Below are positions 10,555 through 40,640 of a stretch of DNA of 64,000 nt, in pieces. The translations under genes were made by a program, and so were the position numbers. The notes under the pieces were generated by a model. It did no database searches. It worked only from the letters and a program-made list of their open reading frames with translations, and had not been told where the DNA came from. The DNA is taken from positions 128,001 through 192,000 of the forward strand of contig CAWDXE010000006.1 in assembly GCA_963806185.1 (NCBI GenBank). The letters are read 5' to 3'. The stretch's first letter is position 1. Each line of letters begins with the position of its first letter. This DNA comes from an uncultured candidate division Zixibacteria bacterium (lineage in GTDB: Bacteria; Zixibacteria; MSB-5A5; GN15; FEB-12).

Positions 10555-10803
10555 CCGTACCCCATCCAACGGATGGGTTCTATTTCTCTGGCTTTCCCCT
10601 CACGATGTTCGATGGACTGAGATTGCCACGAGTCTCGTCGCCGACGGCTCCAGTTCAGAGGACTATGCAAAGGGAAAACCGGAGAAAGAAAAACCCACCT
10701 GATAGGTGGGCTACGGAACCGAGATCCTGAATCATCGGAATGATTCAGGATGACGACATGGTGGAGGTTCAGGATAACGAGATGGTGGAGGTTTAGGATG
10801 ACA
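10555..10803. repeat. REP-like cluster: GTAC/GTAG hairpin pair plus reversed CGTC-type REP with two 24-bp half-unit repeats
   Basis: ccgtaccccatcc-aac-ggatggg (10555), aacccacc-tgata-ggtgggctacgg (about 10692-10716), gagatcctgaatcat..atgattcaggatgacg (10721-10755), then atggtggaggtt(c/t)aggat(a/g)ac twice. Confidence 0.8.
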
Positions 10804-10915
10804 ATTCATAAAGACGCCAAAAGTGCGACTCTGTCCGCTCCGTTTTTTTCTTGTAGCTATTCAACTTTCCGTCGGCGATATTTCTGGACGACCAACGACG
10901 CAAGGAAGGGTGAGC

Positions 10916-11272
10916 ATGGTCCGTTATTTTGCCGCCATTGGATTGGCGATGGGGATTGCGACGCTGGGGTGTTCGAAGGAAGAACCGGCCCCGAAATCAT
11001 CGACCGAACAAACCGAAGCCAACAGCCTTACCGTCAAACTGCCCATCGAACAGGTGATGACCGAGTTCACGGACAGCCTTATGTCATTTCCGGGAGTAGT
11101 CGGTGTGGGCGTCGGCGACTCCGCCGGCAAGCCGTGTATCGCCGTGCTGGTCGTGGAAAAAACGACTGATCTTGAAGCGCAGGTGCCCAAACAATTGGGC
11201 GGCTATCCGGTCCGTATCGACGAGACGGGGGATTTCCGGCCCGACGATGATTCCATTCCGCCCGGCGACTGA
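10916..11272 (+). CDS. Small hypothetical lipoprotein
   Basis: ATG at 10916 after AAGGAAGG; lipobox TLGC; PGVVGVGVG..GKPCIAVLV..GGYPVRI domain. Confidence 0.7.
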   Translation: MVRYFAAIGLAMGIATLGCSKEEPAPKSSTEQTEANSLTVKLPIEQVMTEFTDSLMSFPGVVGVGVGDSAGKPCIAVLVVEKTTDLEAQVPKQLGGYPVRIDETGDFRPDDDSIPPGD

Positions 11273-11274
11273 GC

Positions 11275-12738
11275 CTACAGGTGGAAATACTCTTCGAAGG
11301 AATACCTGAACCCCTGCGGTGTAAACTCGCCGCTCTCCGTGTCCTGCACGTACGTCTGGCTAAAATCACCCGCGACAATCTTCCGAATCATCGCCACAAA
11401 CGTGTCAATCTCCGCCGTCGTGTTGTACAACCCGAACGACATCCGGATCGCCCCCGGCACGTGCGAACGGTCGCGGGCGAGAATCTCCAGCTCCAGTCGC
11501 TTGGCCTCATCGTCCGTCAGATTCAATAAATTACGAATGTACGTGTGGGCACAGAAACAACCCGATCGCACCCCAATGGCTCCCTCGTACCCGAGAATCG
11601 CCGCCACCAGCGAGTGTGGCAGATTGCCCACGTTCATCGAAATCACCCCCAGCCGGTTGATCGCCTGCGCCGGATCGGTTTCTCCGTAAACCGTAACCTC
11701 GGGGATCTTCCGCAATTGCTCCAATGCATGCGCTGTCAGCTCGCGCTCATGCTCGATTATCTGTTTCCACCCCAGCGCCTGAAACATCAGGATCGCCTTC
11801 CCCAGCGCCACTACCCCCACGATGTCGGGCGTGCCGGCTTCTTCCTTATCCGGAAGATCAGTCCAGTACGCTTCTTCAATCGTTACGATATCGACCACCC
11901 CGCCGCCGACTGTATCCGGTTCGCCGATTTCGAATATCCGCTTGTCACCCACCAGCACCCCGACGCCAAACGGCGCGTACATCTTGTGCGCGGAGAAAAC
12001 GAGAAAATCGATGCGATGCAATGGATCGTGCGGCTTCATGTCGATGGGACGGTGCGGCACCAGTTGCGCCCCGTCGACCACAAACCGCGCTCCCAGCTTG
12101 TGGGTGTGTTCGGCAAAGTAATCAAGATCGTTGATGTACCCGGTCACATTCGACGCACCCGTGATCGCCACCACTTTGATGCGTGAACCGAACTTGGCGA
12201 TCTTCGCCTGAAAATCCTCGCGGCTGATCGTCCCGTCAGCGTTCAACCCGACATGCTCGACCCGTCCCACTCGCCGCCAGGGAAGTTCATTGGAATGATG
12301 TTCCATGAGCGTCGTCAGGATGATGCTCTCCCGCCCCGGGCGCAGCCGATTGGCCAGCTTGTTGATGGCGTCGGTGGTGTTTTTCGTGAAGATGACCACT
12401 TGCTGATGCAGATCGGCCCCGACAAACTTCGCCACCAGGTCGCGCGACTCTTCGTACGCCCAACTCGAAAGCTGCGATTTGAAACCCGTGCCGCGATGTA
12501 CATTGGAATACCATTTCAGAAACGACGACACCGCATCGGAGATCGGTGCAAAGGTCGGCGTCGACGCGGCGTTATCGAAATTGACATACGTCTTCGGTCC
12601 GTGCATGGTCGGCACGACCGTGTGAGCCCCCACCATCAGGTCGGGCAGCCGATCGATCGTTATGTCACCGCTCTGGGCGGTCGCGGCGGTCTTGGACGAC
12701 ATAAGAATACTCCCGTCGTGTGCCGACATCGCGGTCAC
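11275..12738 (-). CDS. Class V PLP-dependent aminotransferase / cysteine desulfurase-like protein
   Basis: NFDNAASTP, EHHSN, DGAQ, SAHKM (PLP lysine), EAGTP, RSGCFCA. Exact start uncertain. Confidence 0.9.
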   Translation of the reverse strand: MTAMSAHDGSILMSSKTAATAQSGDITIDRLPDLMVGAHTVVPTMHGPKTYVNFDNAASTPTFAPISDAVSSFLKWYSNVHRGTGFKSQLSSWAYEESRDLVAKFVGADLHQQVVIFTKNTTDAINKLANRLRPGRESIILTTLMEHHSNELPWRRVGRVEHVGLNADGTISREDFQAKIAKFGSRIKVVAITGASNVTGYINDLDYFAEHTHKLGARFVVDGAQLVPHRPIDMKPHDPLHRIDFLVFSAHKMYAPFGVGVLVGDKRIFEIGEPDTVGGGVVDIVTIEEAYWTDLPDKEEAGTPDIVGVVALGKAILMFQALGWKQIIEHERELTAHALEQLRKIPEVTVYGETDPAQAINRLGVISMNVGNLPHSLVAAILGYEGAIGVRSGCFCAHTYIRNLLNLTDDEAKRLELEILARDRSHVPGAIRMSFGLYNTTAEIDTFVAMIRKIVAGDFSQTYVQDTESGEFTPQGFRYSFEEYFHL

Positions 12739-12765
12739 GATGCATGTACCAAAGTAGAGGCGATG

Positions 12766-13977
12766 TCAGGATTTTTCCAGAAATTCCAGATACTGCGACG
12801 CCCACATCTCCCGGTGATGATACCGGGTCGCGTGCGTATGATACGATTTCCCCAGACTGTCACCGTCGATCTTGCCCGATTTCAAGTCGAGAATCAGCTC
12901 CGTTAAGTGGCGCGGATTATCGGTTGCAAACGCCAGCGCACCGCCCGCCCGCTCAAGTTCCCGTACCGCTTCACCGTCGCGCGATCCAAACAGAATCGGG
13001 CGGCCGGAAGCCATGTACTCAAACAACTTACAGGGAAACGTACCGCGCGTTATGGGCACTTCGCGAAGACTCTCTATGAGAACGTCACTGGCCTTCAAAA
13101 AGTGAGGAATGGTCTCCAGCGGCTGTGAGCCAACGAAGCGGACATTTTCCAGACCGTACTCCGCTACCATCTGCTCAAGCTTCGCCCGCTTCTCACCCTC
13201 GCCGACAAACACGAACAGGATATCCGGGCGATCAGTCAGGTGGCGCGCCGATTCAACCAGCGTCTCCAGTTTGTGCGCCCAGCCGAGTGTCCCGGCGTAC
13301 AGGATAAGATACTTGCCGTGCCACCCGAATTTGGTGCGAATACCGTTGTAATCCGCCGTCGAAAACTCCGGAGCAAACCCGGATTTGATCGTCTCCACGC
13401 GCGTCGGTTCAATGCCAAGCTGTCTGATATAGTCGGCGATACCGTCGGTGGCCGCAACAATCTTCTCCGCCTTGCGGTAGAGCGAATGCATCATCCACTT
13501 GAGCGAACGGGTGAAGACGGACTTGTTGAGATTGCCGAAATCCTCGCTTGATTCCGGCTGAAGATCGCGAATCTCAATGACAAACCGGGCACCCCGGAAC
13601 TTGCTCAATAGCCACCCGATCACCGGCGTATTCACCGGTGGCGTGGAGGCCAGCACCAGGTCAACTTTTCCTTTGATCCGAAACGCGTTCAGAAGGGCGG
13701 TAAAAAAGAACACGGCGAATCCGATCATCCGCCGAGTAGGGTGACGATTCGAGGCCGGTAGGACCCAGCTTCGGAATACCCGTACCCCTTCCATCTCCTC
13801 GTAATAGAACAGCTTACCACGATACTTCTCGGGTACTATGCCATCCGGGTAGTTCGGCATAGCCGTGAGTACTGACACCTGATGGCCTTGCCGCACGAAG
13901 AAACGGGCAAATTCATATAGCCGCCGAACCGCTCCGCGTTCTGGCGGAAAATGTTGTGTGACAATCAGTATGTGCAT
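12766..13977 (-). CDS. GT4 family glycosyltransferase (WbuB-like)
   Basis: MHILIVTQHFPPE, MPNYP, YAGTLG, PCKLFEYMASGRPI. Confidence 0.9.
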   Translation of the reverse strand: MHILIVTQHFPPERGAVRRLYEFARFFVRQGHQVSVLTAMPNYPDGIVPEKYRGKLFYYEEMEGVRVFRSWVLPASNRHPTRRMIGFAVFFFTALLNAFRIKGKVDLVLASTPPVNTPVIGWLLSKFRGARFVIEIRDLQPESSEDFGNLNKSVFTRSLKWMMHSLYRKAEKIVAATDGIADYIRQLGIEPTRVETIKSGFAPEFSTADYNGIRTKFGWHGKYLILYAGTLGWAHKLETLVESARHLTDRPDILFVFVGEGEKRAKLEQMVAEYGLENVRFVGSQPLETIPHFLKASDVLIESLREVPITRGTFPCKLFEYMASGRPILFGSRDGEAVRELERAGGALAFATDNPRHLTELILDLKSGKIDGDSLGKSYHTHATRYHHREMWASQYLEFLEKS

Positions 13978-14174
13978 ACAATGTCAAGAATTGTACCTCT
14001 TTTTGCCCCTGCAAGCAATAATTTTGTTCGCGCCTCCGGCTTTTTTTGACCGCCGTTCCCAATTAACTTGACAAAGCCCCTCGTGATTTTTTTCATTTGC
14101 GCCAGTGCTATTGCGGAATTTGTACACTACATTTGTGTATAAAGGACCAAAGACATCTTAGGAGGTTGTTGTTC

Positions 14175-14687
14175 ATGAGACTTGCCAAACTCTCTCTCAT
14201 CATCCTGGCCTTGGCGGCGATTCTTGCCTCGATTGCCATCGCCCAGGAAAAGCCGAAGGCCACCATCGTTGGCCCGGAAAAATGCAAAATGTGCCATAAG
14301 GCTGAATTCACTGCGTGGTCTGCCACCAAGCATGCCAAGGCCTTCGACGCGCTGAAGCCCGAAGAACAAGCCAAGGCCGAATGCGTCGGCTGCCACGTTA
14401 CTGGTAAGACGGCCGAAGGCGTTGCGGTGAACGGCGTGACTTGCGAAGCCTGCCACGGCGCCGGCTCGGAGTACAAGAAGCCGACTATCATGTCAGCGGC
14501 CAAATGGAAAGCCGAACCTGACAAGTACAAAAAGATGGCTCTGGAAGCCGGCCTCGTTATGCCGACTGAAGCCACCTGCAAGAACTGCCATAAGGCTGAA
14601 GGAAACGCGAACTTCAAGGAACGCGATTTCAAGGCCCTGATGAGCCAGGTTCACGCGGTCAAGGCGGAAGCCCCGGCCACGAAGTAA
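14175..14687 (+). CDS. Periplasmic tetraheme cytochrome c (c554-like)
   Basis: AGGAGG RBS then ATG 14175; signal peptide; four CxxCH motifs (CKMCH, CVGCH, CEACH, CKNCH); VTCEACHGAGS. Confidence 0.9.
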   Translation: MRLAKLSLIILALAAILASIAIAQEKPKATIVGPEKCKMCHKAEFTAWSATKHAKAFDALKPEEQAKAECVGCHVTGKTAEGVAVNGVTCEACHGAGSEYKKPTIMSAAKWKAEPDKYKKMALEAGLVMPTEATCKNCHKAEGNANFKERDFKALMSQVHAVKAEAPATK

Positions 14688-14715
14688 GACGAACTGACAA
14701 GTTGAAATAGCACGC

Positions 14716-14747
14716 AGCGGCTCGCGCAAGCGAGCCGCTCTTATTTT
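14716..14747 (+). terminator. Rho-independent terminator
   Basis: agcggctcgc-gcaa-gcgagccgct followed by cttatttt. Confidence 0.75.
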
Positions 14748-14857
14748 GCCGACTGTGGTCGGTGATATCGTCTTCCGGCTGTGTTGCAATCATTGACCCA
14801 CATAATGTATATTTACCGCAACGCCATGTCACCCGACACACAGGAGGATTGCCCGCT

Positions 14858-15271
14858 ATGGCCGAACTGAAAACCAGAGCCACGACCGCCAGTGTCGCGA
14901 AATTTCTTGCCGCCATTACCGATGAGGGCCGCCGCAAGGACGGCCGGAAGATCGCCGTCATGATGGAAAAGATCACGCGCGCCAAACCGAAAATGTGGGG
15001 GCCGAGTATCGTCGGATTCGGCGAGTATAAATATACCTACGCCGACGGGCGTGAACTGGATTGGCCAATGGTCGGCTTCTCACCGCGCAAGCAGGCCATT
15101 TCCATCTACCTGATGGGTGGATTGCAGCATCAGGCCAAATGGCTCAAAAAGCTGGGCAAGCACAAGACCGGCAAAGGGTGCCTGTACGTCAATCGGCTCG
15201 CCGACATTGATTTCGAGGTCCTGACAGCGATGGTGAAAGCATCGGTGGCAAAGATGAAAGCGCGTTTGTGA
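14858..15271 (+). CDS. DUF1801 domain protein
   Basis: AGGAGG RBS, ATG 14858; MWGPSIVGFG.Y.Y, GFSPRK, LGKHKTGKGCLY. Confidence 0.85.
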   Translation: MAELKTRATTASVAKFLAAITDEGRRKDGRKIAVMMEKITRAKPKMWGPSIVGFGEYKYTYADGRELDWPMVGFSPRKQAISIYLMGGLQHQAKWLKKLGKHKTGKGCLYVNRLADIDFEVLTAMVKASVAKMKARL

Positions 15272-19326: not shown

Positions 19327-20346
19327 ATGGAGCTAACACCCAACGATATCCGTAATCTTGAGTTCGCGAATTCCCTTCGCGGCTACGACAAGGACGCCGT
19401 CGATACCTTCAAAGAGCAGGTCGCTCGGGCGCTTGAAACCGTCAAGCAGGAAAATGTCAAATTGAACATGGAACTGGAATCCCTGCGGATCCAGGTCGCC
19501 GGCATCAAACAATTCGAGGACACCATTAAGAGCGCGGCCATCGATTCCCGCCGCAACGCCGACATGCTGTTGGCAAACGCCCGCAAGGAGGCCGAGCAGC
19601 TTGTCACCGCGGCGAAAGCCGAAGCTGAGAAACTGATGGCTTCGCGCAGCGACCGCATGCATGACATCGAACAGCGCCTCCAGAATCTAGATCTGGTCAG
19701 AAAATCCTATGTCGCCAAACTGCGCGGCATGATACAGTCGCACATGGAACTGGTCAACGAGATCGCTCGCGAGTCGGCGACGCCCATGACGACGCAATTA
19801 CGAGAGCATCGCCGCGAAGATAACATCGACATTACCGAATCTACCGAGGTCCGCCGCGCCATGCGCGAGACCGTCGCCACTCAGCCGTCAACGTCCGATG
19901 CGCCGGTACTCGAGGAAGCCAACGCCGCCGGCAATATCATTGCCGCCGTCCACCAGGCGACGGAAGAAATCCAGTCGCTTACCAAGACGTTGCGGGGCGA
20001 GGATGATCCGTCGGTCGATCCCGAACTGGCCGCCGCTCTGGAGAACTACAACAAAGTAGCACAGTCGCAAGGCGCCGATGGCACCAAGAAGCGGGCCAAA
20101 GACACCCAGCCGATTCCGATCTCTGAAAATGCCCTGGGTCGCGTGACGACTATCAACAACGAGCAGGTCCTTGAGGAACCGGATCACGCGCATCCGACAG
20201 AAGAACACGACAGTCAGACCGAACACAACTCGATCAATATCGATCAACCGATAGCCGCCAATCCGGTGGCCGACAGTCTGGCGCGCGAACTCGACGAGGT
20301 CGCGGCCAAGTTCGAAGAGGAAATGGACAAAGCGGACAAGGTCTGA
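19327..20346 (+). CDS. DivIVA domain protein with long acidic C-terminal extension
   Basis: MELTPNDIRNLEFANSLRGYDKDAVDTF, then coiled coil; downstream of yggS. Alternative start at 19303. Confidence 0.85.
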   Translation: MELTPNDIRNLEFANSLRGYDKDAVDTFKEQVARALETVKQENVKLNMELESLRIQVAGIKQFEDTIKSAAIDSRRNADMLLANARKEAEQLVTAAKAEAEKLMASRSDRMHDIEQRLQNLDLVRKSYVAKLRGMIQSHMELVNEIARESATPMTTQLREHRREDNIDITESTEVRRAMRETVATQPSTSDAPVLEEANAAGNIIAAVHQATEEIQSLTKTLRGEDDPSVDPELAAALENYNKVAQSQGADGTKKRAKDTQPIPISENALGRVTTINNEQVLEEPDHAHPTEEHDSQTEHNSINIDQPIAANPVADSLARELDEVAAKFEEEMDKADKV

Positions 20347-20367
20347 GCCACACATTGCAGAACACAC

Positions 20368-20404
20368 AAAGCCGCCCGGCCTGCACCCGGCGGCTTTCTT
20401 ATTT
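20368..20404 (+). terminator. Rho-independent terminator
   Basis: aaagccgcc..ggcggcttt followed by cttattt. Confidence 0.65.
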
Positions 20405-20423
20405 GCACGCCAGTCGACACTTT

Positions 20424-20926
20424 GTCATCGTGAATCATTCCCCGCTTCGTCATCCTGAATCATCCTCCCGCCTCGTCATCCTGAATCATTCCTATGATTC
20501 AGGATCTCAATGTTCACCGAATCGCCAAACAAGTCATCCCCGCCCTCCCATTTGTCATTCCCGCGAAAGCGGGAATCCAGGGTAGGGATTAGCCGGTCCG
20601 TGACCTCGTCGGTGATGCTGTAGAGACTCTGCAAACACCCCACCGCGTAGACGGTGGGGTCCGGATGGAGGACGAGGCTGGCGCACGAGGCGTACGCCAG
20701 CCATGGGATGAAGAGAGCTGAGAGATTGCCACGGCGCGAAACGCGCCTCGCAATGACTGCGACGAGATAATGGAGCGAGCAGGGAAAGTACGTGATAAAC
20801 GAAAGTGTTAAGATTGCTTCGTCGCGTTGGGAAACGCTCCTCGCAATGAGTATTGATGCGGTACGTCGCACTGCCCAGGACCTGACTCTACGAAGATGGC
20901 CGGCGCACGAGACGTACGCCGGCCAC
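20424..20926. repeat. Dense multi-family REP-like cluster
   Basis: gtcatcctgaatcat x3 ending in a full hairpin (20424-20508); gtcattcccgcgaaagcgggaatccag (20554-20580); ccccaccg hairpin (20637); ggcgcacgag.cgtacgcc (about 20678 and 20898); gattgc...ctcgcaatga (20722, 20810). Confidence 0.85.
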
Positions 20927-20948
20927 CGAAATCAATCGCTCTTCATCC

Positions 20949-22568
20949 TCACCCCATAAACGGATACCGGAAATCCTTCGGTGGTACGAAGTTCTCCTTG
21001 ATCGACCGCGGCGACGTCCATCTCAGCATATTCTGAATGCCGCCCGCCTTGTCGTTGGTGCCGCTGGCTCGTCCGCCGCCAAACGGCTGCTGCCCCACTA
21101 CTGCGCCGGTCGGCTTATCGTTGATATAGAAATTTCCCGCCGCATTGCGCAAAGTCCGCTCGGCCAGCGCAATCGCCGACCGGTCGGTCGCAAACACCGC
21201 GCCGGTCAAAGCGTAGGGTGACGTTTGATCGCACAGGTGCAGAGTCTTGGCGAATTCGTCGTCTTCATAGATGAACATCGTCATCACCGGGCCGAAGATC
21301 TCTTCTTCCAGCGTTTTGTAGTGCGGATTGCTGGTGACGATAACAGTCGGTTTGATGAAGAAGCCGTTAGTTTTGTCGTATTCGCCGCCGATCAGAATCT
21401 CGGCGTCTTTCTGCGTTTTGGTGTAATCGATATACGCCGTGATCGATTTGAAAGCGCTCTCGTCGATCACCGCATTGATGAAGTTGCCGAAATCCTCCGG
21501 ATCACCCATCTTCATCGCCGACACCTGCGCCACGATTTTCTCTTTCAGAGCCGGCCAGAGCGACTTGGGCAGATAGGCGCGCGACGCCGCACTGCATTTC
21601 TGACCCTGGTATTCAAATGCGCCACGCGTGATCGCAGTCGCTAATGCGTCGACCTCCGCGCTCGGATGCGCCACGATGAAATCCTTGCCCCCAGTCTCGC
21701 CGACAATACGCGGATACGATTTGTAGACGGCGATATTCTCGCCGATCGTCTTCCACATCGACTGGAACACGCCGGTCGAGCCGGTGAAATGAATTCCGGC
21801 CAGCATCTTGTTTTTCAGCACGACGTCGCTCACCGAGCCGCCGCGCGCGAAGATCAGATTGATCACGCCGGCAGGAAGTCCCGCCTCGCGCAGAATCTTC
21901 ATGATGAAGTACGACGTGTACGCGACGGTCGACGCCGGTTTCCAGACCGCCACGTTGCCGAGCATGGCCGGCGCGGTCGGCAGGTTGCCGTTGATCGAAA
22001 CGAAATTGAACGGCGACACGCAGAAGACGTACCCTTCGAGCGGACGGTGATCCATCCGGTTCCAGAGAAGCGGACTGCTGTCGGGCTGAACCTTGTAGAT
22101 TTCCTGCATGAAGAAGGCGTTGAACCGCCAGAAATCGGCCAGTTCGCAGACCGCGTCGATTTCGGCCTGAAAAATATTCTTGGAATGCGCCAGCATGGCG
22201 GCGGCGTTCATGACATAGCGATACGGTCCGGCGAGCAGGTCGGCCGCTTTGAGGAAGATGGCGGCGCGATGTTCCCACGGCATGGCGGCCCAGGCGTTTT
22301 GCGCCTCGACGGCGGCGTCGATCGCCATCTGAGCTTCTTTGGGGCCGCCCTGATAATAGTGACCGAGAATCAGCTTATGGTTGTGGGGCGAGCGGATTTC
22401 GATTTTGTCGCCGGTGCGGATTTCTTTGCCGCCGATGATCATCGGGATATCGATCGGAGTGGCTTTGAGTTGGGCGAGCGCTTTTTCTATCCCCTGACGC
22501 TCGACACTGCCGGGCGCGTAGTTGAGCACCGGTTCATTTTTGGGTGTCGGGACGTGAAAAATTCCCAT
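20949..22568 (-). CDS. pruA: Delta-1-pyrroline-5-carboxylate (L-glutamate gamma-semialdehyde) dehydrogenase
   Basis: NEPVLNYAPGS, QAEIDA, SPFNF, HFTGST, GETGGKDF, FEYQGQKCSA, EEIFGP, GNFYINDKPTGAVVGQQPFGG. Confidence 0.95.
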   Translation of the reverse strand: MGIFHVPTPKNEPVLNYAPGSVERQGIEKALAQLKATPIDIPMIIGGKEIRTGDKIEIRSPHNHKLILGHYYQGGPKEAQMAIDAAVEAQNAWAAMPWEHRAAIFLKAADLLAGPYRYVMNAAAMLAHSKNIFQAEIDAVCELADFWRFNAFFMQEIYKVQPDSSPLLWNRMDHRPLEGYVFCVSPFNFVSINGNLPTAPAMLGNVAVWKPASTVAYTSYFIMKILREAGLPAGVINLIFARGGSVSDVVLKNKMLAGIHFTGSTGVFQSMWKTIGENIAVYKSYPRIVGETGGKDFIVAHPSAEVDALATAITRGAFEYQGQKCSAASRAYLPKSLWPALKEKIVAQVSAMKMGDPEDFGNFINAVIDESAFKSITAYIDYTKTQKDAEILIGGEYDKTNGFFIKPTVIVTSNPHYKTLEEEIFGPVMTMFIYEDDEFAKTLHLCDQTSPYALTGAVFATDRSAIALAERTLRNAAGNFYINDKPTGAVVGQQPFGGGRASGTNDKAGGIQNMLRWTSPRSIKENFVPPKDFRYPFMG

Positions 22569-22713
22569 GACGGACTGCTTTCTGAAATATGGTTAAACGA
22601 CAACGTCTAATTTTGGGGCAATGTAGCAAAGGGGACCGAGAGGGGCAAGGGGGGAATGGAAAGGGCGGGGAAGTGGTTGCGTTTTAGGCTGTTAAGGGAA
22701 ATAGGCGAGTAGA

Positions 22714-22883
22714 GTCATCGCGAGGCTCGCTTCGCGCCGTGGCGATCTTTCAGTTCATTCAATGGCTGGCGTACGTCCCGTGCGCCAGCACCGTTCACCA
22801 TTCGTACCCCACCGTCTATGCGGTGGGGTATCTGAAAGCCTGGCCCACTGAAGATACCCCACCGTAAATCGGTGGGGTACGGA
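22714..22883. repeat. REP-like cluster: composite module plus REP doublet
   Basis: 22714-22829 is an inverted copy of 20637-20757; 22803-22883 is a doublet also found inverted at 40334-40413. Confidence 0.85.
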
Positions 22884-23081
22884 GTAGAGCGGTTATCGGA
22901 AACAGATTTTGAGGTGTGCTAGCGGGTGGTTGAAGTGGAGAGAGTAAAATGAACCAGCGTGATTTGAAAATGTGATATTTTGACCCATACATTCGGTGTA
23001 TCGTTCGACTTCAACTTGTCGGCGGAATGTATGATCTGTAATTCCGAAAATGTCTTTCCATTGCACCTTCGCCCTTCCCAC

Positions 23082-23204
23082 AACGTCACCCCCGCCTTCC
23101 CCACAACGTCACCCCCGCCTTCCCCAAAACGTCACCCCCGCCTCCCCCAAAACGTCACCCCCGCCTCCCCCAAAACGTCACCCCCGCCTTGAGCGGGGGC
23201 CCAT
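23082..23204 (+). repeat. 23-bp tandem repeat (4 units) ending in a full REP hairpin
   Basis: aacgtcacccccgcct(t/c)cccca(c/a) at 23082, 23105, 23128, 23151; at 23174 it continues as aacgtcacccccgccttgagcgggggcccat. Confidence 0.95.
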
Positions 23205-23530
23205 CAGGATCGTAACGCGATGTACTACGTTTACGTCATGACGAATCGCCGTCACGGCACGCTCTATGTCGGCATGACCAACGACCTGATCAAGCGGGTG
23301 GGTCAGCACAAGCAGAACATGGCCGACGGATTCACCAGCAAGTGGGGCCTCCATACGCTTGTATATTTCGAGATGATCGAGCACGCGTACGAGGCTATTC
23401 AGCGCGAGAAGCGATTCAAGAAGTGGAATCGTAGCTGGAAAGTGCAGCTCATTGATGAAAACAACCCCGACTGGGCGGACTTGTACCCAGAGATTTTGGG
23501 AATGGGCCCCCGGTCAAGCCGGGGGTGACA
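23176..23530. mobile_element. Putative REP-flanked GIY-YIG element
   Basis: Inverted 28-bp REP copies (23177-23204 and 23502-23529) enclose only the nuclease gene. Mobility is inferred, not shown. Confidence 0.55.
23220..23528 (+). CDS. Small stand-alone GIY-YIG nuclease (UPF0213/YhbQ-like)
   Basis: YYVYVM..TLYVGMTNDL.KR..QH, EAIQREKRFKKW.RSWK..LI..NPDW.DL. Confidence 0.92.
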   Translation: MYYVYVMTNRRHGTLYVGMTNDLIKRVGQHKQNMADGFTSKWGLHTLVYFEMIEHAYEAIQREKRFKKWNRSWKVQLIDENNPDWADLYPEILGMGPRSSRG

Positions 23531-23547
23531 TTGGGGCGGCATCGTTC

Positions 23548-23589
23548 CGTCAGGTCCTGCGCCGAGTCTGCGAGGCGTGTGACCAGACG
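23548..23589. repeat. 42-bp imperfect palindrome, inverted partner at 24816-24857
   Basis: Reverse complement matches 24816-24857 at 38/42 positions. Confidence 0.8.
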
Positions 23590-23611
23590 GTCTTTCGATA
23601 ATCACGCCCCC

Positions 23612-24671
23612 TCACCCCTCCGCCACCACCCTCGCATATAACTGCGTCAGCGTTCCCCCATACCTCTCCCACGTGAATTCGCGCGCGCGATGCGTGCCGG
23701 CGGCGATCAGGGCGTGGCGATACGGTTGATCATCGAGCAGGCGGCGGAGCGCCTCGGTGCTCGCTGAGGGTTCGTCGGGTGACACCAACACACCCGCGTC
23801 GCCGGCCACCTCGGCACAACTGCTTCGGTCCGACGTTATCACCGGCGAGCCAGCCGCCATCGCCTCCAACACCGGCATGCCAAACCCCTCCTCCCACGAC
23901 GGCAACAAGGTCGCGGTTGCGTGTTGGTATAGCGCAGTCAGGTCGGCCTGCGCCAGACGCGAAAAGCGGATAAGCCGCTCGGACGGAAAACGGGCCAAAT
24001 CGCGCACCGCGATATCGTCGTACCCAAACCCCGGTTCCCCTACGATCACCAGCGACAGATTTTTCAGCGGCATGACGGCATCGACAATATGCCCAAGATT
24101 CTTTCGGTTTTCGATTCGCCCCACAAACAGCACGTACGACTGCGACAAGACCGGTCGGACCGGTGCGCTGATGTCGGCGTCGGTCGGAATCGACGGGATA
24201 CTCACCCCCAGCGGGATCGCCACACATTTGTCGGGGGCGACCAGATCAAGTTCGAGCAATTTGCGGCGGGTCCATTCGCTGTCGGCGATAATCAGGTCGG
24301 AACGGAAGATATCGTTGCGCATGCGCACTTCCAGCTTCTTCTGGAACGGCGCAGGCTGGTACGGATTCGGGATAGAGCGACCAGACATCGTGCGTGGTGT
24401 AGATGACTTTCTCGCTTCGCACGGACGGGAGGCGATGGCACAGGGCATGGACAATATCGTAACGGGGTGACCGGAAGCGGCTCAACAGGCCGGTTTGTTG
24501 GACGGGGATGTTTTGCACTTTCACGTTGTTCGGATCGCCGCGACGATAGAGGGCGGTAGGGCGCAGATCAGGGTGTGAGGCGGCCATCCGCAGAGTGTGA
24601 TGGCAGACCTGCGCGATGCCGCCGTAGGGCGAGACGGCGAGTGAGGTGACCTCGAAGGCGATGTTGAGCAT
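23612..24671 (-). CDS. GT4 glycosyltransferase (MtfB-like), split by a +1 frameshift at about 24370
   Basis: N-terminal ORF ...IYTTHDVWSLYP joins NPYQPAPF... of the second ORF if one G of ggg (24369-24371) is removed; FVGRIENRKN, EGFGMPVLEAMAAG. Confidence 0.85.
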
Positions 24672-24762
24672 CGATCAAACAAAGGCCAATGAGGGTGGAA
24701 ATGTCAAGGGAATCGAAAGAGGCTGCTTGCCCTCACCGCAGACCTACATGTCAGCAAGTCTT

Positions 24763-24960
24763 GTAGGACAGGATCCCCGCTTCTTAGCGGGTGATCCTGA
24801 CGTCCTATTCTCAAGCGTCAGGTCACACGCCTCGCGGACTCGGCGCACGACTTGACGCAACGCAGGCGTGGCGCACGGGACGTACGCCACGCACGGAGGA
24901 TTCACGTCGGGCTGAGCCTTCGACTTCGTCATGGACAAACTCCGTCGAGGCCGGTCGTCG
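24763..24960. repeat. REP-like cluster
   Basis: GTAG-tagged hairpin (24763-24807), 42-bp element (24816-24857), gtggcgcacgggacgtacgccac (about 24868-24890), cttcgacttcg-type element (about 24905-24960). Confidence 0.7.
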
Positions 24961-25058
24961 CCGCAGGAAAGAATCCCCTGGTTGCGTTCTCTCCCCTGCC
25001 TTCCTACTTTGTCGCATGACTGATTCTGTCGCCATCAATTGCGATCTGGTCTGGGGAC

Positions 25059-28352: not shown

Positions 28353-28532
28353 TGTACAGTCAGTGTCAGCGGGGATGATCGATTCTTCGACCGGGAATCA
28401 GGGGAATACGATGGTTATCCTCTGCGAGTCGCAGGGACGCGACCCGGTCGGCAACTGTCACGCGGGCTCGCTTGAGTGTTCGAAGCGAGCCCGTTGTTGC
28501 TGTCGGAAAACTCAGGGACGGATCGACAAGTC

Positions 28533-29867
28533 ATGTTGCCCCAGGTTCTGATTTACAATGCGACCGCCACGATCGGCCGAGTTCTGTCCGCCTTTTTGGC
28601 CCGTCATCAGGTTCACGCAGTCTACGTTTCGAAGCCCGACGAGACGCTCTCGCGGCTCACTCCCGGCCAGTTTTCGATCCTTTTGCTCGACCTGAATTTT
28701 GGGGACGAGCGCAATCCGTTTGACTATCTGGAGGCGGTTTTTGACCGCGATCCGGACATTGTGGTGATCGCCATGCCTGGCCGTCCGCAGTACGAAACGG
28801 CGATGGGGATGATGGAAGCGGGGGCGTTTGCCTTCATTCCGAAGCCGCTCAACGAGCACCTGATTTGGGTGACGGTCAACAAAGGGTTGGAGCATTACCG
28901 GCTCCGGCAGGTCCGTCGGCGGATGGAAGAGGGGCTTCAGGTCAGCCGATACGGGGAGTTTTTGGGGGTCAGTTTGGCGGTTCGGGGGGCGGTTGAAACG
29001 GCTCGAGCGGCGGCCGGGGTGGCCAGTCCGGTGCTGATCAGCGGTGAGCCGGGGGTCGGAAAAACCCATTTGGCGCACCTGATTCATGAGTGGTCGGGGC
29101 GGCGGCCGGTGGTGCGGGTCCGGGTTTCGACGGTCGCACCGGACCGGCTGGAGCGGGAATTTTTCGGCCAGGTCCGTACGACGACCAGCAAAGCGGTCCA
29201 ATTCGACCCGGGTTTGTTTTACCGGGCGGAAGGTGGGACACTGATTATAGATGAGGTCGAGCGCCTGCCGTTGGCTTTTCAGGGGAAGCTGGCGCAGGCG
29301 CTCGAGGACGGCAGGGTGTTGCCGGAGGGGGCAACACAGCCGTACCCGATTGCCGTGCGGGTGGTCGGTTTGACGACGGCTGATCTTCGCGAAGAGGTCG
29401 GGGCGGGGCGGTTTCGCGAGGATCTCTATTTCCGGCTGGCGACCGTGCCGATCGCCCTTCCGCCGTTGCGGGAGCGTCGGGAGGATATCGCCCTGCTTTT
29501 GAGGCAGGTGATGACTCAGTTGGGGCGGACGTTTGAGGAGTTGAGCCAGGAGCTGGTCACGCAGTTGCTGGTGGCGCGCTGGCCGGGGAATGTGCGACAG
29601 GTGGAATCGACCCTGGCGCGGATGGCGGCATTGAAACCGTCGGGTGTGCTGGAGGTGGTCGATTTGCCGGCAGACTTCGACGAGCCGGTGGGGGTAGCGC
29701 CGAGGGTGGAGTTGCGCCTGACGGATGCGTCGCGGCGGAGTGCGGCGATATACACAATTCAACATGCGTTAGCGCAGGCGCGCGGGAACCGCACGCGGGC
29801 GGCAAAGCTGCTTGGAATACCGAGACATACGTTATTATATCGTATGAAGAAGTTGGGGATGCGGTAG
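28533..29867 (+). CDS. NtrC-family REC-AAA+-Fis HTH regulator, atypical (no GAFTGA)
   Basis: LLLDL..KP receiver, GEPGVGKT Walker A, GGTLIIDE, FREDLYFRL, WPGNVRQ, GNRTRAAKLLGIPRHTLLYRMKKLG. Start may be 28476. Confidence 0.88.
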   Translation: MLPQVLIYNATATIGRVLSAFLARHQVHAVYVSKPDETLSRLTPGQFSILLLDLNFGDERNPFDYLEAVFDRDPDIVVIAMPGRPQYETAMGMMEAGAFAFIPKPLNEHLIWVTVNKGLEHYRLRQVRRRMEEGLQVSRYGEFLGVSLAVRGAVETARAAAGVASPVLISGEPGVGKTHLAHLIHEWSGRRPVVRVRVSTVAPDRLEREFFGQVRTTTSKAVQFDPGLFYRAEGGTLIIDEVERLPLAFQGKLAQALEDGRVLPEGATQPYPIAVRVVGLTTADLREEVGAGRFREDLYFRLATVPIALPPLRERREDIALLLRQVMTQLGRTFEELSQELVTQLLVARWPGNVRQVESTLARMAALKPSGVLEVVDLPADFDEPVGVAPRVELRLTDASRRSAAIYTIQHALAQARGNRTRAAKLLGIPRHTLLYRMKKLGMR

Positions 29868-32004: not shown

Positions 32005-32466
32005 GGCCTTCGACTTCACTCCGGGCGGCGTATTACGGATTACGCACATTTCAATGGTAGGTCAGGGGCCTTGTGCCCCGGACAGCAAGGCTGGCGTACG
32101 CGAGTGCGTGCACAGGGAGTAGGGGGAAGCATTGAATCTTGAACCCACCGTTCCGGTGGGGTACGAGCGACGCTATAGCGAACACCGATGGATTTGAGGT
32201 TGCTTCGTCCCCTTCGACTCCGCTCAGGGTCCTCGCAATGAGTCAGTCGAGTTTTCGATTCATCGGTCGCGCTTCGACTTCGCTCAGTGCGACGTATTAT
32301 CGAGATGCTGAAGCACGATAAGAAGCGGCTTTAGCATGACAGGCTTCAGCATGACGATTCTATGGGCCCCCGCTTTCGCGGGGGTGACATTGGAGAAGGC
32401 GGGGGTGACATTAGTCTACTGTCGGGTTTCTCCGCGAGCAAAGCTCGCTCCGGAACCCGACCTACG
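32005..32466. repeat. Dense multi-family REP-like cluster
   Basis: Hairpins at about 32057 (GTAG), 32140, 32190, 32264, 32302, 32362 and 32419-32465 (reversed GTAG REP). Confidence 0.85.
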
Positions 32467-35828: not shown

Positions 35829-37030
35829 GACTTGGTCCTTTTCGGTGGCTGGACGATGTGGCCAAGAACCGGCTGGGGCAGTTGCGGCCGGCTGGAATCG
35901 AAGCGGGTGCGCAAAGGTTCGCCGCGCAGGCCGGCCTCGCCCATAACGGCGTAGGCTGACGACTCGACCAGTTGCGGATCGAAGCCGAGTTCGGCGATGG
36001 AGGCGACATCGTTTGGATACAGCATATCAGTCAGGCGGCGGACGAAGTATTCATTGCGGGCGCCGCCACCCATTAAGTATACCGTGTGGAGACGGTCGTC
36101 ATCAGCAAAAAACGGGGCGACTCTTTCGACAATGGTGCCGACGGTCAGTTCGGCGGCGGTAGCGAGCATATCGAACTTTGACAGCTTGAGTTTTCGGCCG
36201 GCGGAGTAGATCTGCTGCATGGTTCTCACGCCGAAGTCCTCGCGGCCGGTGGACCGTCGATTACTGCGGAAGAACGGATTGGCGGCGAGCATGGTCATCA
36301 GGCGAGTGGAAATCACGCCGCGGCCGGCGAAAGCGCCGTTCTTGTCATAAGGAAGATTGAACAGAAATTGCGTAAGCAGGTCCGACAGGACATTGCCCGG
36401 GCCGCAATCGGCGGCACGAACGGCAAGTTTCGCATGGCCGGTCGGAAAGTAGAAGTAGTTTGCCATGCCGCCAATATTGACGATCAGGCGCGACTCTTCT
36501 GGATCGGCGAACAAACGCGCCATGGCGCCGACCGTAATAGGAGCGCCCTCACCGCCGAGGGCAATATCGCCCTGTCGGAAGTTGCCGACAGTCATGCAGC
36601 CGGTCAGGGCTGCGATCTGGTCGAGCGAACCGAGCTGAAGTGTGCCATTGAGCGGATGGCCGAGAATCTTGAGTTTCGCCGGAAGATGACGGACAGTCTG
36701 GCCGTGAGTGGCGATCAGGTCGACGGTAATGCGCCGGCGCTTGAGTTTCGCAATGAATCGCGAGCCGGCCTGGCCGATGACCCGACCGATCAGGTTGTCG
36801 AAGCGGATGACAGCATCGAGATCGACCTTGTCGGCGTCGGCAAGAAAATGGATGGATCGCCGCAATTGAGGAGTGAATGGCGCCGAGATGCTGTCGAGAA
36901 TGCGATAGCTGGTTTTCCCTTGCGTGTGGCTGATGCGCAAGGCGACCAGATCGAGGCCGTCGGCAGAGGTACCGGAATTGATGCCAACGACGGTAAGGCT
37001 TTGGCGATGTATAAGCTCGGTCAGTGACAT
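35825..37030 (-). CDS. anmK: Anhydro-N-acetylmuramic acid kinase
   Basis: SGTSADG, THGQTVRH, TLQLG, GGEGAP, NIGGMAN, DCGPGN, STGRE, GGGARN. Confidence 0.92.
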   Translation of the reverse strand: MSLTELIHRQSLTVVGINSGTSADGLDLVALRISHTQGKTSYRILDSISAPFTPQLRRSIHFLADADKVDLDAVIRFDNLIGRVIGQAGSRFIAKLKRRRITVDLIATHGQTVRHLPAKLKILGHPLNGTLQLGSLDQIAALTGCMTVGNFRQGDIALGGEGAPITVGAMARLFADPEESRLIVNIGGMANYFYFPTGHAKLAVRAADCGPGNVLSDLLTQFLFNLPYDKNGAFAGRGVISTRLMTMLAANPFFRSNRRSTGREDFGVRTMQQIYSAGRKLKLSKFDMLATAAELTVGTIVERVAPFFADDDRLHTVYLMGGGARNEYFVRRLTDMLYPNDVASIAELGFDPQLVESSAYAVMGEAGLRGEPLRTRFDSSRPQLPQPVLGHIVQPPKRTKS

Positions 37031-37035
37031 ATTGC

Positions 37036-38049
37036 CTACTGAATGGCCACGCGGCGGAGTCTGCATTTTAGTCCGGCAATCCGTTCCAGCGAAGCGGTGA
37101 GTCGGGCAGGCGGGATATTTCCGCGCCGCACCGCATCGACAAAGTAATCAAACGCCTCCATGGCCAGTTCGTAATCTCGCCCGAACAGGAGAATATCGTG
37201 TCCGGCGAGGAAAGCCGCAACAGCGCGTTCGCCGATTGAACCGAGCGTTTCAGCGCCGGCCATAGAGAGATCGTCGGTGATAACCAGACCGTCAAAATCC
37301 AGCCCTTTGCGCAGCAATGAATCCATCACGGTTTGAGAACCGGTGACGATTGCCGAGTCCAGTTCGGGGAGAACGACGTGAGTAGTCATGATCATATCGG
37401 CGCCGGCCTCGATGCCCGCGACAAACGGAATCGATTCTCTCTGGCGCCAGACGAATTCGTCATACTTGATCGTGGGAGTCATAGTGTGAGGATCGAGATC
37501 GCCTGCGCCGAGTCCGGGGAAATGTTTCAGGCAGGAAAGCAGGCCGGACCGACGCGAGACCTCGACCGAGGTGCGCACGAATTTGGCGACGTGTTCGGGG
37601 TCGCTGCCGAAGCTTCGTCCCTCGAGGACGGCATTCTTCGGGTTCGTGAAGATGTCCGCGACCGGGGCGAGATTGAGGTTAAAGCCAAGGGCCTCAAGAT
37701 AGACGGCGGAGCGGGAGTAATCTTCGCTGAAATGATCGGTGGTTTTTTCGCGGCCGTAATCGGCAGCCGAGCGGAATTCGGCCGGAGCCCCGCGCAGACG
37801 ACAGACCCGGCCACCCTCCTGATCAATGGCAATAAAGGGAATAGTGTCGTGCTGGGCACTCCTGATCTGATCGACGTTCTGTCGGGCCGCAAGGTGAGTA
37901 GGGCAGTTTTCTTCAAAGAAGATTACGCCGCCCAGGCGTTCCTCCCTCACGAAGTTCCGGAAAGCAGAAGAGGGTGCGGAGCCGGGGAATCCGCACATGA
38001 ACAATTGTCCGAGTTCTTGCATCAGGTCAGCCATATCAGTAAACCCCAC
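37036..38049 (-). CDS. nagZ: GH3 beta-N-acetylhexosaminidase
   Basis: AIDQEGGRV, NLAPVAD, RSF, KHFPGLG....DPH, ITDDL.M. Start may be ATG 38034. Confidence 0.9.
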   Translation of the reverse strand: MGFTDMADLMQELGQLFMCGFPGSAPSSAFRNFVREERLGGVIFFEENCPTHLAARQNVDQIRSAQHDTIPFIAIDQEGGRVCRLRGAPAEFRSAADYGREKTTDHFSEDYSRSAVYLEALGFNLNLAPVADIFTNPKNAVLEGRSFGSDPEHVAKFVRTSVEVSRRSGLLSCLKHFPGLGAGDLDPHTMTPTIKYDEFVWRQRESIPFVAGIEAGADMIMTTHVVLPELDSAIVTGSQTVMDSLLRKGLDFDGLVITDDLSMAGAETLGSIGERAVAAFLAGHDILLFGRDYELAMEAFDYFVDAVRRGNIPPARLTASLERIAGLKCRLRRVAIQ

Positions 38050-38065
38050 ACACTACGTCCTGCTA

Positions 38066-39625
38066 TCAGGCGATGCAGACGAGATTTTTTCCAGAACCTT
38101 TGGCTCGATACAACGCTTGATCGGCCACAGAGACGAGTTCCTCGTGCGACCGGCCGTTTTCGGGGAACGATGAGACACCGACTGAGACGGTGATCTTCAC
38201 TTTTCCGGCCGAACCCGCATCAATGATGGTACTCTCCACCTGTGATCGGATACGCTCCCCGATATGGTGTGCTTCACTCTGGGGCGTCTGAGGGAGAATG
38301 ACGACGAATTCCTCGCCGCCATAACGGGCGAAGATATCGACATCGCGAATACAACTCTTGATAACGCGAGAAAGTTCCTTTAGTACAACGTTGCCGACCT
38401 CGTGCCCGTACGAATCATTAAGCTTCTTGAACCAGTCGATGTCAACCATAATGAGCGACAGGGGGAGGTCGTAACGGGTGGCACGCTTCTTTTCTTCCTG
38501 CAGTTTCTGAACGAAGTAGCGATAATTGAAGGTTTCGGTCAGTTCGTCGATGATGGTCAGTTCGGCCGTGCGGCGATGCAGTTCGGCGTTTTCGATCGCC
38601 AGGGCGGCCGAGCGGGCCACCACCGTCAGCATCTGGACGTCGCGATCGGTGAAGCGATCCCGTTCAGGCGCTTCGGCGAGCAGGAGTCCCTGGGTCTGGC
38701 CGTGAGCGGTCATCGGGACGACGATAAGCGAACGCGACTGGGACATCATGGGCAGGTAATCATCGCGGTCACCGATTTCCTTGATGCGGATCGGCTCGTG
38801 CATGTCGGCCACCTTGCGCAGCAGGTCATTCTTGGTGATATCAAGCGCTTTGGCGTGGAAGTTGGCATGGCCGTCGATCTGCCTCGCCCGGTAATAGAAG
38901 GTATCCGGGCGATTGCGAAACACCAGCGCAAATTGCTGGTATTGCAGAGTGCGGCCGAGGATGCGTGCTATCTCTTTGACCACGCCGTCGGGTTCGAGAA
39001 TGGCCGCCAGGATGCGGGTGTTCTCGTAGATCATCTCGAGTTGGGCCTGTGATTTTTCCAGTTCCGACGTGCGCATATTGAGCGTATCGAAAAGCTTCAT
39101 CAGGCGACGTTCGGATTTGCGCAGATAATCTGAGGCGTAGGCCACGGCCAGGTAACTGATCCAGAGAAAGCCGATGCGCATGGTGACCCCGAAGAGGGCG
39201 TCAATGGTCAGATCCTGGGAGATGATTATCAGATAGGCAACCGTGACGATGACGGTCACGGCGGTGGCGAACCAGAAGGTGAGCATGTAGGCGCCGACCG
39301 AAACGGTGAGAAAGAACAGGACGAACATCGACGACTGGACGCCGCCGGTGTAGGCGATGAAGATCGGGACGAATATGATGTCGTAGATGATCGCCGAGAG
39401 ATAGGCCAGTTTCATATCGAAACGGTCGCGAATGGCCAGCGCCAGGAGGCTGAGGTTGGCGATGAAGGTGACAATAATGATGCTGCAGAGGACGGGCTCA
39501 TCGCGGAGGATACTGGAGGACAGGACGTACCAGAGAAAGCCGATGAGCGTCAATACTCGGGTAAGCAGAAAGATGACGTCAATCCGCGGCAGGAGAGTCT
39601 TGTTACGGTCGAGAAACAGTTTCAT
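38066..39625 (-). CDS. Membrane-anchored GAF-GGDEF diguanylate cyclase
   Basis: About 6 N-terminal TM segments, GAF domain, DIDWFKKLNDSYGH, RDVD I-site and RYGGEEF. Confidence 0.92.
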   Translation of the reverse strand: MKLFLDRNKTLLPRIDVIFLLTRVLTLIGFLWYVLSSSILRDEPVLCSIIIVTFIANLSLLALAIRDRFDMKLAYLSAIIYDIIFVPIFIAYTGGVQSSMFVLFFLTVSVGAYMLTFWFATAVTVIVTVAYLIIISQDLTIDALFGVTMRIGFLWISYLAVAYASDYLRKSERRLMKLFDTLNMRTSELEKSQAQLEMIYENTRILAAILEPDGVVKEIARILGRTLQYQQFALVFRNRPDTFYYRARQIDGHANFHAKALDITKNDLLRKVADMHEPIRIKEIGDRDDYLPMMSQSRSLIVVPMTAHGQTQGLLLAEAPERDRFTDRDVQMLTVVARSAALAIENAELHRRTAELTIIDELTETFNYRYFVQKLQEEKKRATRYDLPLSLIMVDIDWFKKLNDSYGHEVGNVVLKELSRVIKSCIRDVDIFARYGGEEFVVILPQTPQSEAHHIGERIRSQVESTIIDAGSAGKVKITVSVGVSSFPENGRSHEELVSVADQALYRAKGSGKNLVCIA

Positions 39626-39727
39626 ATCTGGCGCCTGATAGTCTTAAGACTGTATCGGCAGATATGGAGGTTTATTTATTGGAGGAAAAGGGGTTAGGGG
39701 GAAGATCCGCGCCGGCGTCAGAGTCGC

Positions 39728-40288
39728 TCAGAGGGCCGACGGAAATCTCCGCCGCGAGGCGAAGTATGCGGCGACAAGAAAGATGCCGCCGCCGTACAGA
39801 ATCGAGCCGAAACTGACGCGACCGAACAGATTCCACGGCGCGAACGGATGCAAAGTAGATTGAGACGGATTGGCCGGATCGTAATAGACGATCACGGCCT
39901 TTCCTTTTGGATATTCGGCGACGATTTCCCGAGCGACGTCGTATTTCGAGTTGCGTCCGCCAAAGGCTGGTGAATCCATCGCGGTAGTATCGATGAATTG
40001 CGTCCCCCCCACGCTGTAGGAATAGACTATTTCGGGATGGAAAGCGCGGTGCCCGGCGACCTGCGTTTGCAGGACTTCACCCGACACCGACGGCCAATGA
40101 CGGCGATCTTCGGAGATACCGAGCGAGCGGAAGGAGATGAGGACCAGTGCGGCACCACAAAGAGCCAGTACCAGTCCGAGCAGAGCGAAACGGCGCGTGG
40201 TCCGGAGTACCCCCTCGCGGAAGAGCAGTACCGGCAGAATTACCAGCAGACTGACAGCCACGAGGACGATGAGGGCGGAAGAGAGCAT
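39728..40288 (-). CDS. DUF3592-like membrane protein
   Basis: WPSVSGEV, Y.YSVGG, V.VYYDPANPS.S between TM helices. Start placed at ATG 40288 because the upstream extension is REP sequence. Confidence 0.75.
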   Translation of the reverse strand: MLSSALIVLVAVSLLVILPVLLFREGVLRTTRRFALLGLVLALCGAALVLISFRSLGISEDRRHWPSVSGEVLQTQVAGHRAFHPEIVYSYSVGGTQFIDTTAMDSPAFGGRNSKYDVAREIVAEYPKGKAVIVYYDPANPSQSTLHPFAPWNLFGRVSFGSILYGGGIFLVAAYFASRRRFPSAL

Positions 40289-40333
40289 ATAAACTAGTAG
40301 AACACGGATTGGCGGGGAGGGTTCGGATTGACT

Positions 40334-40640
40334 TCCGTACCCCACCGATTTACGGTGGGATATCCACGCGTGGCAACTCCCCAGATACCCCACCGCATAG
40401 ACGGTGGGGTACGGGTAGAAGAGAGCTTGTCATTCTGGCCCCCCATTGTCATTCTGGAGCGTAGCTCCAGAATCTCAGTGTCCACGAATCTGACGTCATT
40501 GTCATTCTGGGCGCTCAGCCCAGAATCCATGAGGCCACACACGCCACTGCGCTACGCCTTAACCTGGATTCCCGCTTTCGCGGGAATGACAAAGGGGGCG
40601 GGTATGACCGGAGGGGACGGGTATGACAAGAGGGGTGGGC
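40334..40640. repeat. Multi-family REP-like cluster
   Basis: GTAC doublet 40334-40413; gtcattctgg hairpins at 40448 and 40501; ctggattcccgctttcgcgggaatgac 40564-40590 with two half-unit repeats. Confidence 0.85.

Follow-up and report, generated by a model that had tools for sequence, protein, structure and literature searches.

In a 64,000-nt stretch of a candidate division Zixibacteria genome (contig CAWDXE010000006.1; hereafter the window, whose coordinates are used unless a contig is named), eight hairpins with an unpaired CGTC or TGTC tag at one end are preceded, on the tag side, by one to four tandem copies of a half hairpin. Each half unit comprises the GTCA tag and the 5′ arm, ends at or just inside the loop and is followed by a C/T-rich stretch that runs up to the next tag. 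These arrays are a real, undescribed behavior of a known repeat–nuclease system, that of CGTC-tagged repetitive extragenic palindromes (REPs) and the GIY-YIG nuclease Ssn, and we infer a mechanism for them. The arrays bear on how CGTC REPs and Ssn-related motifs (SRMs) change and spread: the available text of Di Nocera et al. (2013; PMC3733652) gives CGTC REPs no dedicated transposase, and that of Chenal et al. (2025; PMC11893778) shows cutting by Ssn and not copying.

All eight loci had been named in an original prediction made from the letters of the window, and re-reading the sequence confirmed each of them, coordinates and units included; Tandem Repeats Finder, unaided, recovers five. We assigned the hairpins to families F1 to F4 of the whole genome that contains the window (G000, its contigs designated C plus a number). 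The longest array lies on the plus strand, where four 23-bp half units (23085–23176; G of GTCA at 23085, 23108, 23131 and 23154), each consisting of tag, 5′ arm to the loop and C-rich leader, stand before a full F1 CGTC hairpin with a 5-nt loop and a CCA-type tail (23176–23203, G at 23177) that forms the left end of an ssn cassette. Also on the plus strand are two half units of 25 and 26 bp before a full F2 hairpin (20424–20508; G at 20424 and 20449 before 20475), one 21-bp half unit before a full F1 hairpin (20533–20580; G at 20533 before 20554; SRM match at 20553–20580) and one 19-bp half unit before a full F3 hairpin (40429–40476; G at 40429 before 40448). The minus strand carries one 21-bp half unit before a full F1 hairpin (32362–32409; G at 32409 before 32388; SRM match at 32362–32389), two 24-bp half units before a full F2 hairpin (10721–10802; G at 10802 and 10778 before 10754), two half units of 19 and 18 bp before a full F1 hairpin (40564–40627; G of the first unit at 40627, that of the hairpin at 40590; SRM match at 40564–40591) and a 15-bp half unit with a 1-nt spacer before a long-loop hairpin (32302–32355; G at 32355 before 32340). 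At this last locus (32302–32356), an exception to the spacer rule described below, pairing is better for the distal arm than for the proximal arm.

Neighboring units within an array differ by stepwise substitutions. Arrays do not precede every full hairpin, as six others in the window (at 7256, 7316, 23529, 30738, 31096 and 40501) lack an arm-length half unit. The predicted identity of each half with the arm of its own hairpin holds for the most part: over 48 de-duplicated arrays of G000, the set used for all permutation tests of local origin, half arms were closer to the hairpin they precede than to permuted ones (0 of 5,000 shuffles). It fails at 20533 and 40564–40627, where the half is of another F1 subfamily variant, and five arrays in G000 carry a half from a different hairpin family.

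Throughout the genome the copies lie on one side. Full hairpins of F1 to F3 had an upstream copy of the 5′ half in 48 of 123 cases and the mirror arrangement, a downstream copy of the 3′ half, in 2 of 123 (Fisher p = 1e-14), both of them loose matches. With F4 (12 of 47 upstream, 0 of 47 downstream), the genome-wide set of 170 hairpins shows 60 upstream half copies versus 2 downstream. Among controls in the same genome, copies accompanied 22 of 1,397 hairpin ends without a tag and 1 of 44 hairpins with a GTAG tag, and three non-CGTC repeat families, one of them counted on both strands, yielded 4 upstream and 1 downstream among 137. Mirror copies are thus nearly absent and other hairpin families nearly without arrays, which supports the predicted tie to the tag and rejects generic slippage of a variable-number tandem repeat, acting on either side of any palindrome. 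The asymmetry extends well beyond G000. Among the matches listed from many phyla (at least 131 loci), 16 of 149 hairpins had an upstream half and 0 of 149 a downstream one, with one duplicate and about five matches that looked loose on inspection; in viral contigs the half-then-full pattern occurred at 34 loci and its mirror at none. Within the phylum, a strict half-unit pattern built on F1 alone, which degenerate units escape, was found in 53 of 285 genomes, led by G122 (45) and G000 (33).

We considered other sources of the polarity. Arrays are equally common whichever skew strand bears the tag (43 of 95 hairpins on the C-rich strand versus 8 of 20 on the G-rich strand), so polarity tracks the tag rather than fork direction, and slippage set by the fork was rejected. 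The orientation of transcription was rejected as well, with arrays found in all four gene contexts, as judged from rough open reading frame (ORF) calls.

A unit begins about 8–10 nt ahead of the GTCA tag and reaches to the tip of the hairpin. Because it runs to the tip, unit length follows stem length: stem ends at 11, 13 and 15 correspond to median units of 21, 22 and 26 nt (Spearman 0.60, p = 1e-8, 77 units), and F4 halves measure 27–30 nt in 10 of 11 cases. The spacer has a floor near 6 nt, being at least 6 nt in all 77 own-family units of G000 and shorter in 7 of 151 arrays from a cross-taxon scan that could find units from 7 nt upward. Singleton hairpins also bear a G-poor leader at about −10 to −1, and 3-nt microhomology of the tip with the flank is available about twice as often upstream (32 of 66) as in the mirror position (17 of 66). 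In the cross-taxon set (L215–L372) the most frequent unit length is 21 nt, flanked by shoulders at 18 and 24 nt; multiples of three are slightly over-represented. As a separate observation, G000 contains composite elements (C7:474150–474420, C7:77250–77680 and C3:47340–47600) in which two or more different hairpins occur in fixed order and longer duplications cover everything between the first hairpin's leader and the tip of the second.

The units are partly of local origin. Array spacers in G000 matched the local flank better than permuted flanks did (0 of 2,000). Across taxa, where we kept 110 of the 151 arrays and dropped those with units outside 16–24 nt or poor arms, flank identity was raised at −1 to −8 (z 2.3–6.9) and not at −9 to −12, and 27 of the 110 matched the flank at 6 or more of 8 positions versus 2.5 expected. 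Eight of the ten exact local duplications in the scan have junction microhomology of 0–2 nt. The signal for a reverse-complement origin of spacers was weak (4.19 versus 3.98 ± 0.08). The number of units varies between alleles: eleven related contigs that share one flank (L444–L454) carry no unit (L445 and L448), one unit (eight contigs) or two units (L452, truncated by its contig end), and the spacer gained there resembles the flank without copying it perfectly. This spacer recurs at a second locus with a different flank (L442 and L443). The genus of G000 contains this genome alone, so there are no orthologous alleles for the loci of the window.

From the scarcity of exact copies, together with the spacer common to two loci, it follows that units also move between loci and that an array is no clean ordered record. 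The original prediction of an ordered record of events was therefore overstated, the majority of spacers being inexact with respect to the local flank. Units are thus made by local duplication and afterwards blurred by slippage and by exchange from locus to locus. Greater degeneracy of distal units, another part of the prediction, was seen in G000 (11 versus 2, with 8 ties) and not across taxa (4 versus 2, with 30 ties). A recording array of the CRISPR kind, with unique acquired spacers added at one end, was also rejected, judged on spacers alone: they are 8–11 nt long and 74–95% identical per position between neighbors.

The hairpins of the window fit the known CGTC-tagged REPs and Ssn-related motifs, to judge from their sequence. 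All eight array hairpins have the unpaired tag at one end, and YGTCAT predominates among GTCA hairpins genome-wide. F1 has an 8-bp stem, in some cases beginning AC; F2 and F3 have stems of 10–12 bp and a CTC or CCA tail. The SRM is matched by three of the eight array hairpins and by the hairpin on the right flank of the ssn gene; the other five array hairpins are without a match. Because G000 contains 47 SRM matches versus 23–40 in three shuffles, the published motif is weak in this genome. Between the inverted hairpins at 23177 (+) and 23529 (−) lies a gene for a predicted Ssn-like nuclease of 102 aa (23220–23528, +), in which GIY-YIG (PF01541, E = 2.6e-15) is the sole domain and to which no NCBIfam family is assigned. 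It is 47% identical (E = 3e-34) to an unannotated homologue from Neisseria gonorrhoeae (L456), the comparand here in place of N. meningitidis SsnA itself. The inverted full hairpin overlaps the 3′ end of the gene (23502–23530, −), matches the SRM and has no half unit. G000 has four ssn-like genes, of which that at C1:866455 is likewise flanked by hairpins on both sides. Beside these four, the genome holds six genes for Y1-type (RAYT-like) HUH transposases (L008–L013), several flanked by GTAG hairpins, and at C5:189740–189940 a short GIY-YIG gene of another type lies between two similar tRNA-like sequences.

Quite possibly, then, the arrays are one-sided tandem copies, from about −8 to −10 before the tag to the tip, left as scars by the repair of Ssn nicks. 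SsnA of N. meningitidis cuts the tag strand as single-stranded DNA on the tag side (PMC11893778), and we place this cut 5 nt ahead of the G in GTCA, computed from the NTS75 oligonucleotide in supplementary file 1 and the 20-nt product in that paper. The arrays sit on this same side, so the copies may well mark faulty repair of such cuts. Ssn would nick the tag strand a few nucleotides 5′ of the tag, as has been shown in vitro for Neisseria and Wolbachia homologues (PMC11893778). Synthesis from the upstream 3′-OH would then copy the tag and 5′ arm but stall at the tip, where the 3′ arm of the old strand is still paired. The new end could slip back past the nick, onto the C/T-rich leader upstream, and fill-in and ligation to the old 5′ end would add one unit. 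Ordinary slippage could supply more units, and recombination in the shared arm could swap them between loci. A spacer floor near 6 nt is what one would expect if re-priming must lie upstream of the nick. The cut side is taken from the literature, and we put forward the succession of nick, extension to the tip, slip-back, fill-in and ligation tentatively. The arrays themselves are probably functionless scars.

Several observations weigh against this proposal. The upstream junction, at about −7 to −10, lies 3–5 nt beyond the Neisseria cut at −5, and the 15-bp unit at 32302–32355 has a spacer of 1 nt. F3 halves taken alone show no significant match to their own hairpin (p = 0.26), per-position flank identity in G000 exceeds z = 2 at −1 to −3 alone, and exact local duplications make up just 10 of the 151 cross-taxon arrays. 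Nor did arrays correlate with GIY-YIG (ssn) genes across genomes, a check that came with the original prediction. Among 101 genomes with at least five full F1 hairpins each, many of them incomplete and related, the 73 that are ssn-positive had 156 half units for 1,287 hairpins (0.121) and the 28 that are ssn-negative had 30 for 391 (0.077); half units per hairpin were not higher in the former (Mann–Whitney p = 0.15), and the ssn-positive rate drops to 0.067 without G000 and G122. By the strict F1 pattern, the ssn-positive genomes G161, G158, G201, G283 and G284 have 27–60 hairpins (27 in the complete genome G158) and zero half units, so ssn is not sufficient. Since many of the genomes are related and incomplete, and since recent losses of the gene may have occurred, a role for Ssn is still compatible with this lack of enrichment. 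The suggestion of a nick-based process, possibly driven by the GIY-YIG nuclease, is thus supported by the side of the cut and unsupported as to enrichment. The frequency of events, which ranges up to 0.97 half units per hairpin in G000, 0.55 in G122 and 5 for 11 hairpins in G104, appears to be set by the host background of replication and repair rather than by mere possession of ssn.

Slippage without any nuclease could also be polar if the hairpin re-forms behind the polymerase, so that only its tip is single-stranded, and if the C/T-rich leader on the tag side offers microhomology to the end of the arm and the loop. The G-poor leader of singletons, the commoner microhomology upstream than downstream, the missing correlation with ssn and the clear junction microhomology at L444–L454 and in the 23085 array are all in keeping with this explanation. 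The bias in available microhomology, however, is about twofold against an observed 60 to 2, the exact duplications have little microhomology at their junctions, and the scarcity of spacers below 6 nt is left without a reason. The three non-CGTC families, moreover, share the genome and the strand bias and yet have copies at 4 of 137. We therefore regard nuclease-free slippage as possible but rather unlikely. Recombination or deletion could leave half units where a donor 'leader plus hairpin' replaces the resident 3′ half or where one 3′ arm, with its tail, drops out of a head-to-tail dimer. Halves of another family or subfamily before some hairpins, the long repeats from second tip to first leader at C7:474150–474420 and C7:77250–77680, the one spacer at two loci with different flanks (L442–443 versus L444–454) and the many spacers unlike their local flank all point this way. 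Against these stand arms and spacers that are significantly local and orphan 3′ halves that, by inspection and with loose 3′ patterns, resembled chance matches in unrelated sequence, which led us to reject them as reciprocal deletion products; such events alone also give no account of junctions at the tip and at about −9. As the principal source of the arrays they are improbable, and in any case they are likely a secondary contributor.

The mode of host replication might instead drive the arrays, with many starts away from oriC producing nicks, flaps and single-stranded DNA near hairpins, and with a hairpin-binding host protein or Ssn setting only the side. The array-rich genomes G000, G122 and G104 have sawtooth, flat and irregular GC skew, respectively, whereas G012, without an F1 hairpin, and G161, with 38 hairpins and zero half units, are roughly two-replichore. 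The genomes with irregular skew are thus the array-rich ones, but these are five related genomes, four of them sampled in part, and amount to an anecdote; arrays are also present in many taxa beyond these five. Both recG and the 5′-nuclease domain of polA are present in G000, so we rejected loss of either as the cause. RNase HI (PF00075) had no match in any of the five family genomes G000, G008, G009, G012 and G014; as the two-replichore G012 is among them, the missing match does not single out G000. We consider replication mode a very unlikely driver. An assembly artefact has next to no probability: the arrays are read here from assembled contigs, and the three sequencing runs identified contain 5–10% of the sampled words, as contigs of which no listed piece crosses an array, but the arrays show stepwise substitutions between units, are strictly one-sided, recur in 53 of 285 phylum genomes and in independent collections, and include an allele series with 0, 1 and 2 units.

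The skew of G000 is a separate and possibly larger lead, to a bacterium that may start replication at about ten regularly placed sites distant from dnaA. Its GC skew forms a sawtooth of about ±10–19%, with gradual declines and ten strong upward jumps about 300 kb apart (C1:218k, 542k and 865k; C3:101k; C4:184k and 302k; C5:51k; C6:150–152 kb; C7:390k and 857k). The pattern is visible at the third codon positions of plus- and minus-strand genes alike, genes have no preference for the G-rich strand (747 versus 720), and dnaA (C1:993839) lies away from every jump. Together these features suggest multiple replication origins. In the window, the switch of skew from negative to positive at 20000–25000 (4-kb values −10.9, −1.8, +4.8 and +14.5; minimum at C6:150,000–152,454) falls where the longest array and the ssn cassette lie. 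Hairpin clusters lie within 25 kb of jumps in 28 of 85 cases versus 13.6% expected (p = 4e-6), 45 of 56 oriented clusters point towards jumps (5 ties excluded), and the tag strand is the C-rich strand for 95 of 115 CGTC hairpins. Non-CGTC repeat families show the same bias (33:7, 36:9 and 15:9) and also cluster near jumps, so the strand bias is not specific to Ssn. Two of the four ssn genes, that of the window and C1:866455, are each no more than about 2 kb from a minimum of the whole-sequence skew; for the latter the codon-corrected minimum is 10 kb off. Among ORFs shared near jumps, compared by BLAST pairs only, no initiator-like family stood out, and a DnaA-like match at 28476–29867 proved to be a sigma-54 activator. 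In the sampled skew of relatives, two replichores seem to be present in the complete genome G012, of the same family, and in G161; almost no skew is seen over 637 kb of G122 (C16 and six other contigs); and on G104:C3, 543 of 887 kb are sawtooth-like with sign switches about 280 kb apart. Both G122 and G104 are rich in half units.

It is conceivable, if quite improbable, that Ssn nicks prime DNA synthesis in vivo, with aborted events leaving half arrays and productive ones, especially at inverted pairs like that of the ssn cassette, launching forks from about ten origins linked to the selfish element. Origins of this kind away from dnaA would yield a sawtooth skew, and the 3′ ends freed at an inverted hairpin pair point as the observed skew requires. 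The strand bias and clustering shared by GTAG-type repeats speak against such origins, as does the presence of just two of four ssn genes at jumps. Cyanobacteria for which replication from multiple origins, independent of DnaA, and irregular skew are reported (Ohbayashi et al. 2020, PMC7198777) offer a parallel of a bacterium with dnaA but without two-replichore GC skew; G000 differs in its strong and regular sawteeth, read from sequence alone.

If repair of Ssn nicks does account for the arrays, a strictly one-sided duplication, bounded by the tip and by about −9 and lying on the side of the cut, would record in the genome how Ssn acts on its own chromosome. Such a footprint would offer a simple reporter assay and would predict the cut sites of other Ssn homologues. 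Elsewhere in the window, 51515–60616 (−) encodes a 3,033-aa protein with about 20 immunoglobulin-like repeats (a 279-bp period, 16 times) and a C-terminal dockerin, and other dockerin-bearing secreted proteins lie nearby.

A literature search, mostly of open-access papers, returned no description of one-sided half-hairpin arrays. In cells deficient in flap endonuclease, ligation of flaps gives short tandem duplications with little microhomology, in which the displaced 5′ end is kept. The arrays differ from these in being site-specific and polar at a tagged hairpin, in a genome with the polA 5′-nuclease domain.

The closest published systems share parts of what we describe. With the Ssn/SRM system (Chenal et al. 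2025, PMC11893778), the window has in common a YGTC-tagged hairpin with a CCA-type tail and a small single-domain GIY-YIG gene (about 95 aa as published, 102 here) between inverted hairpins; the identity of the window protein to its Neisseria homologue and the published cut on the side where the arrays sit strengthen the likeness. The main text of that paper has 'tandem' nowhere and 'half' solely for engineered split substrates, and it describes no genomic half-site arrays. Five of the eight array hairpins depart from the published motif, and the protein is known here as a gene translation. The REPs with a CGTC tag, as published (Di Nocera et al. 2013, PMC3733652), have an 8–9-bp stem beginning AT, a CCA-type tail and mostly head-to-head dimers, the last a descriptive trait in that paper rather than a strict criterion. 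Common to both are the CGTC or TGTC tag, an A-starting stem, a 4–5-nt loop, a short tail, a mostly intergenic location and several families per genome. The published head-to-tail dimers are negligible and clusters rare, whereas head-to-tail clusters and halves are common in G000; half copies go unmentioned in the available text, and the stems of F2 to F4 exceed its 8–9 bp. The NIMEs (intergenic mosaic elements) of Neisseria, arrays of dRS3 and RS repeats (Bentley et al. 2007, PMC1797815), resemble ours in their hairpin core and strain-variable unit number and are thought to grow by recombination. NIMEs, however, consist of full dRS3 palindromes with RS spacers of 19–214 bp, whereas the arrays described here are built of half hairpins with leaders of 8–11 nt, on one side only.

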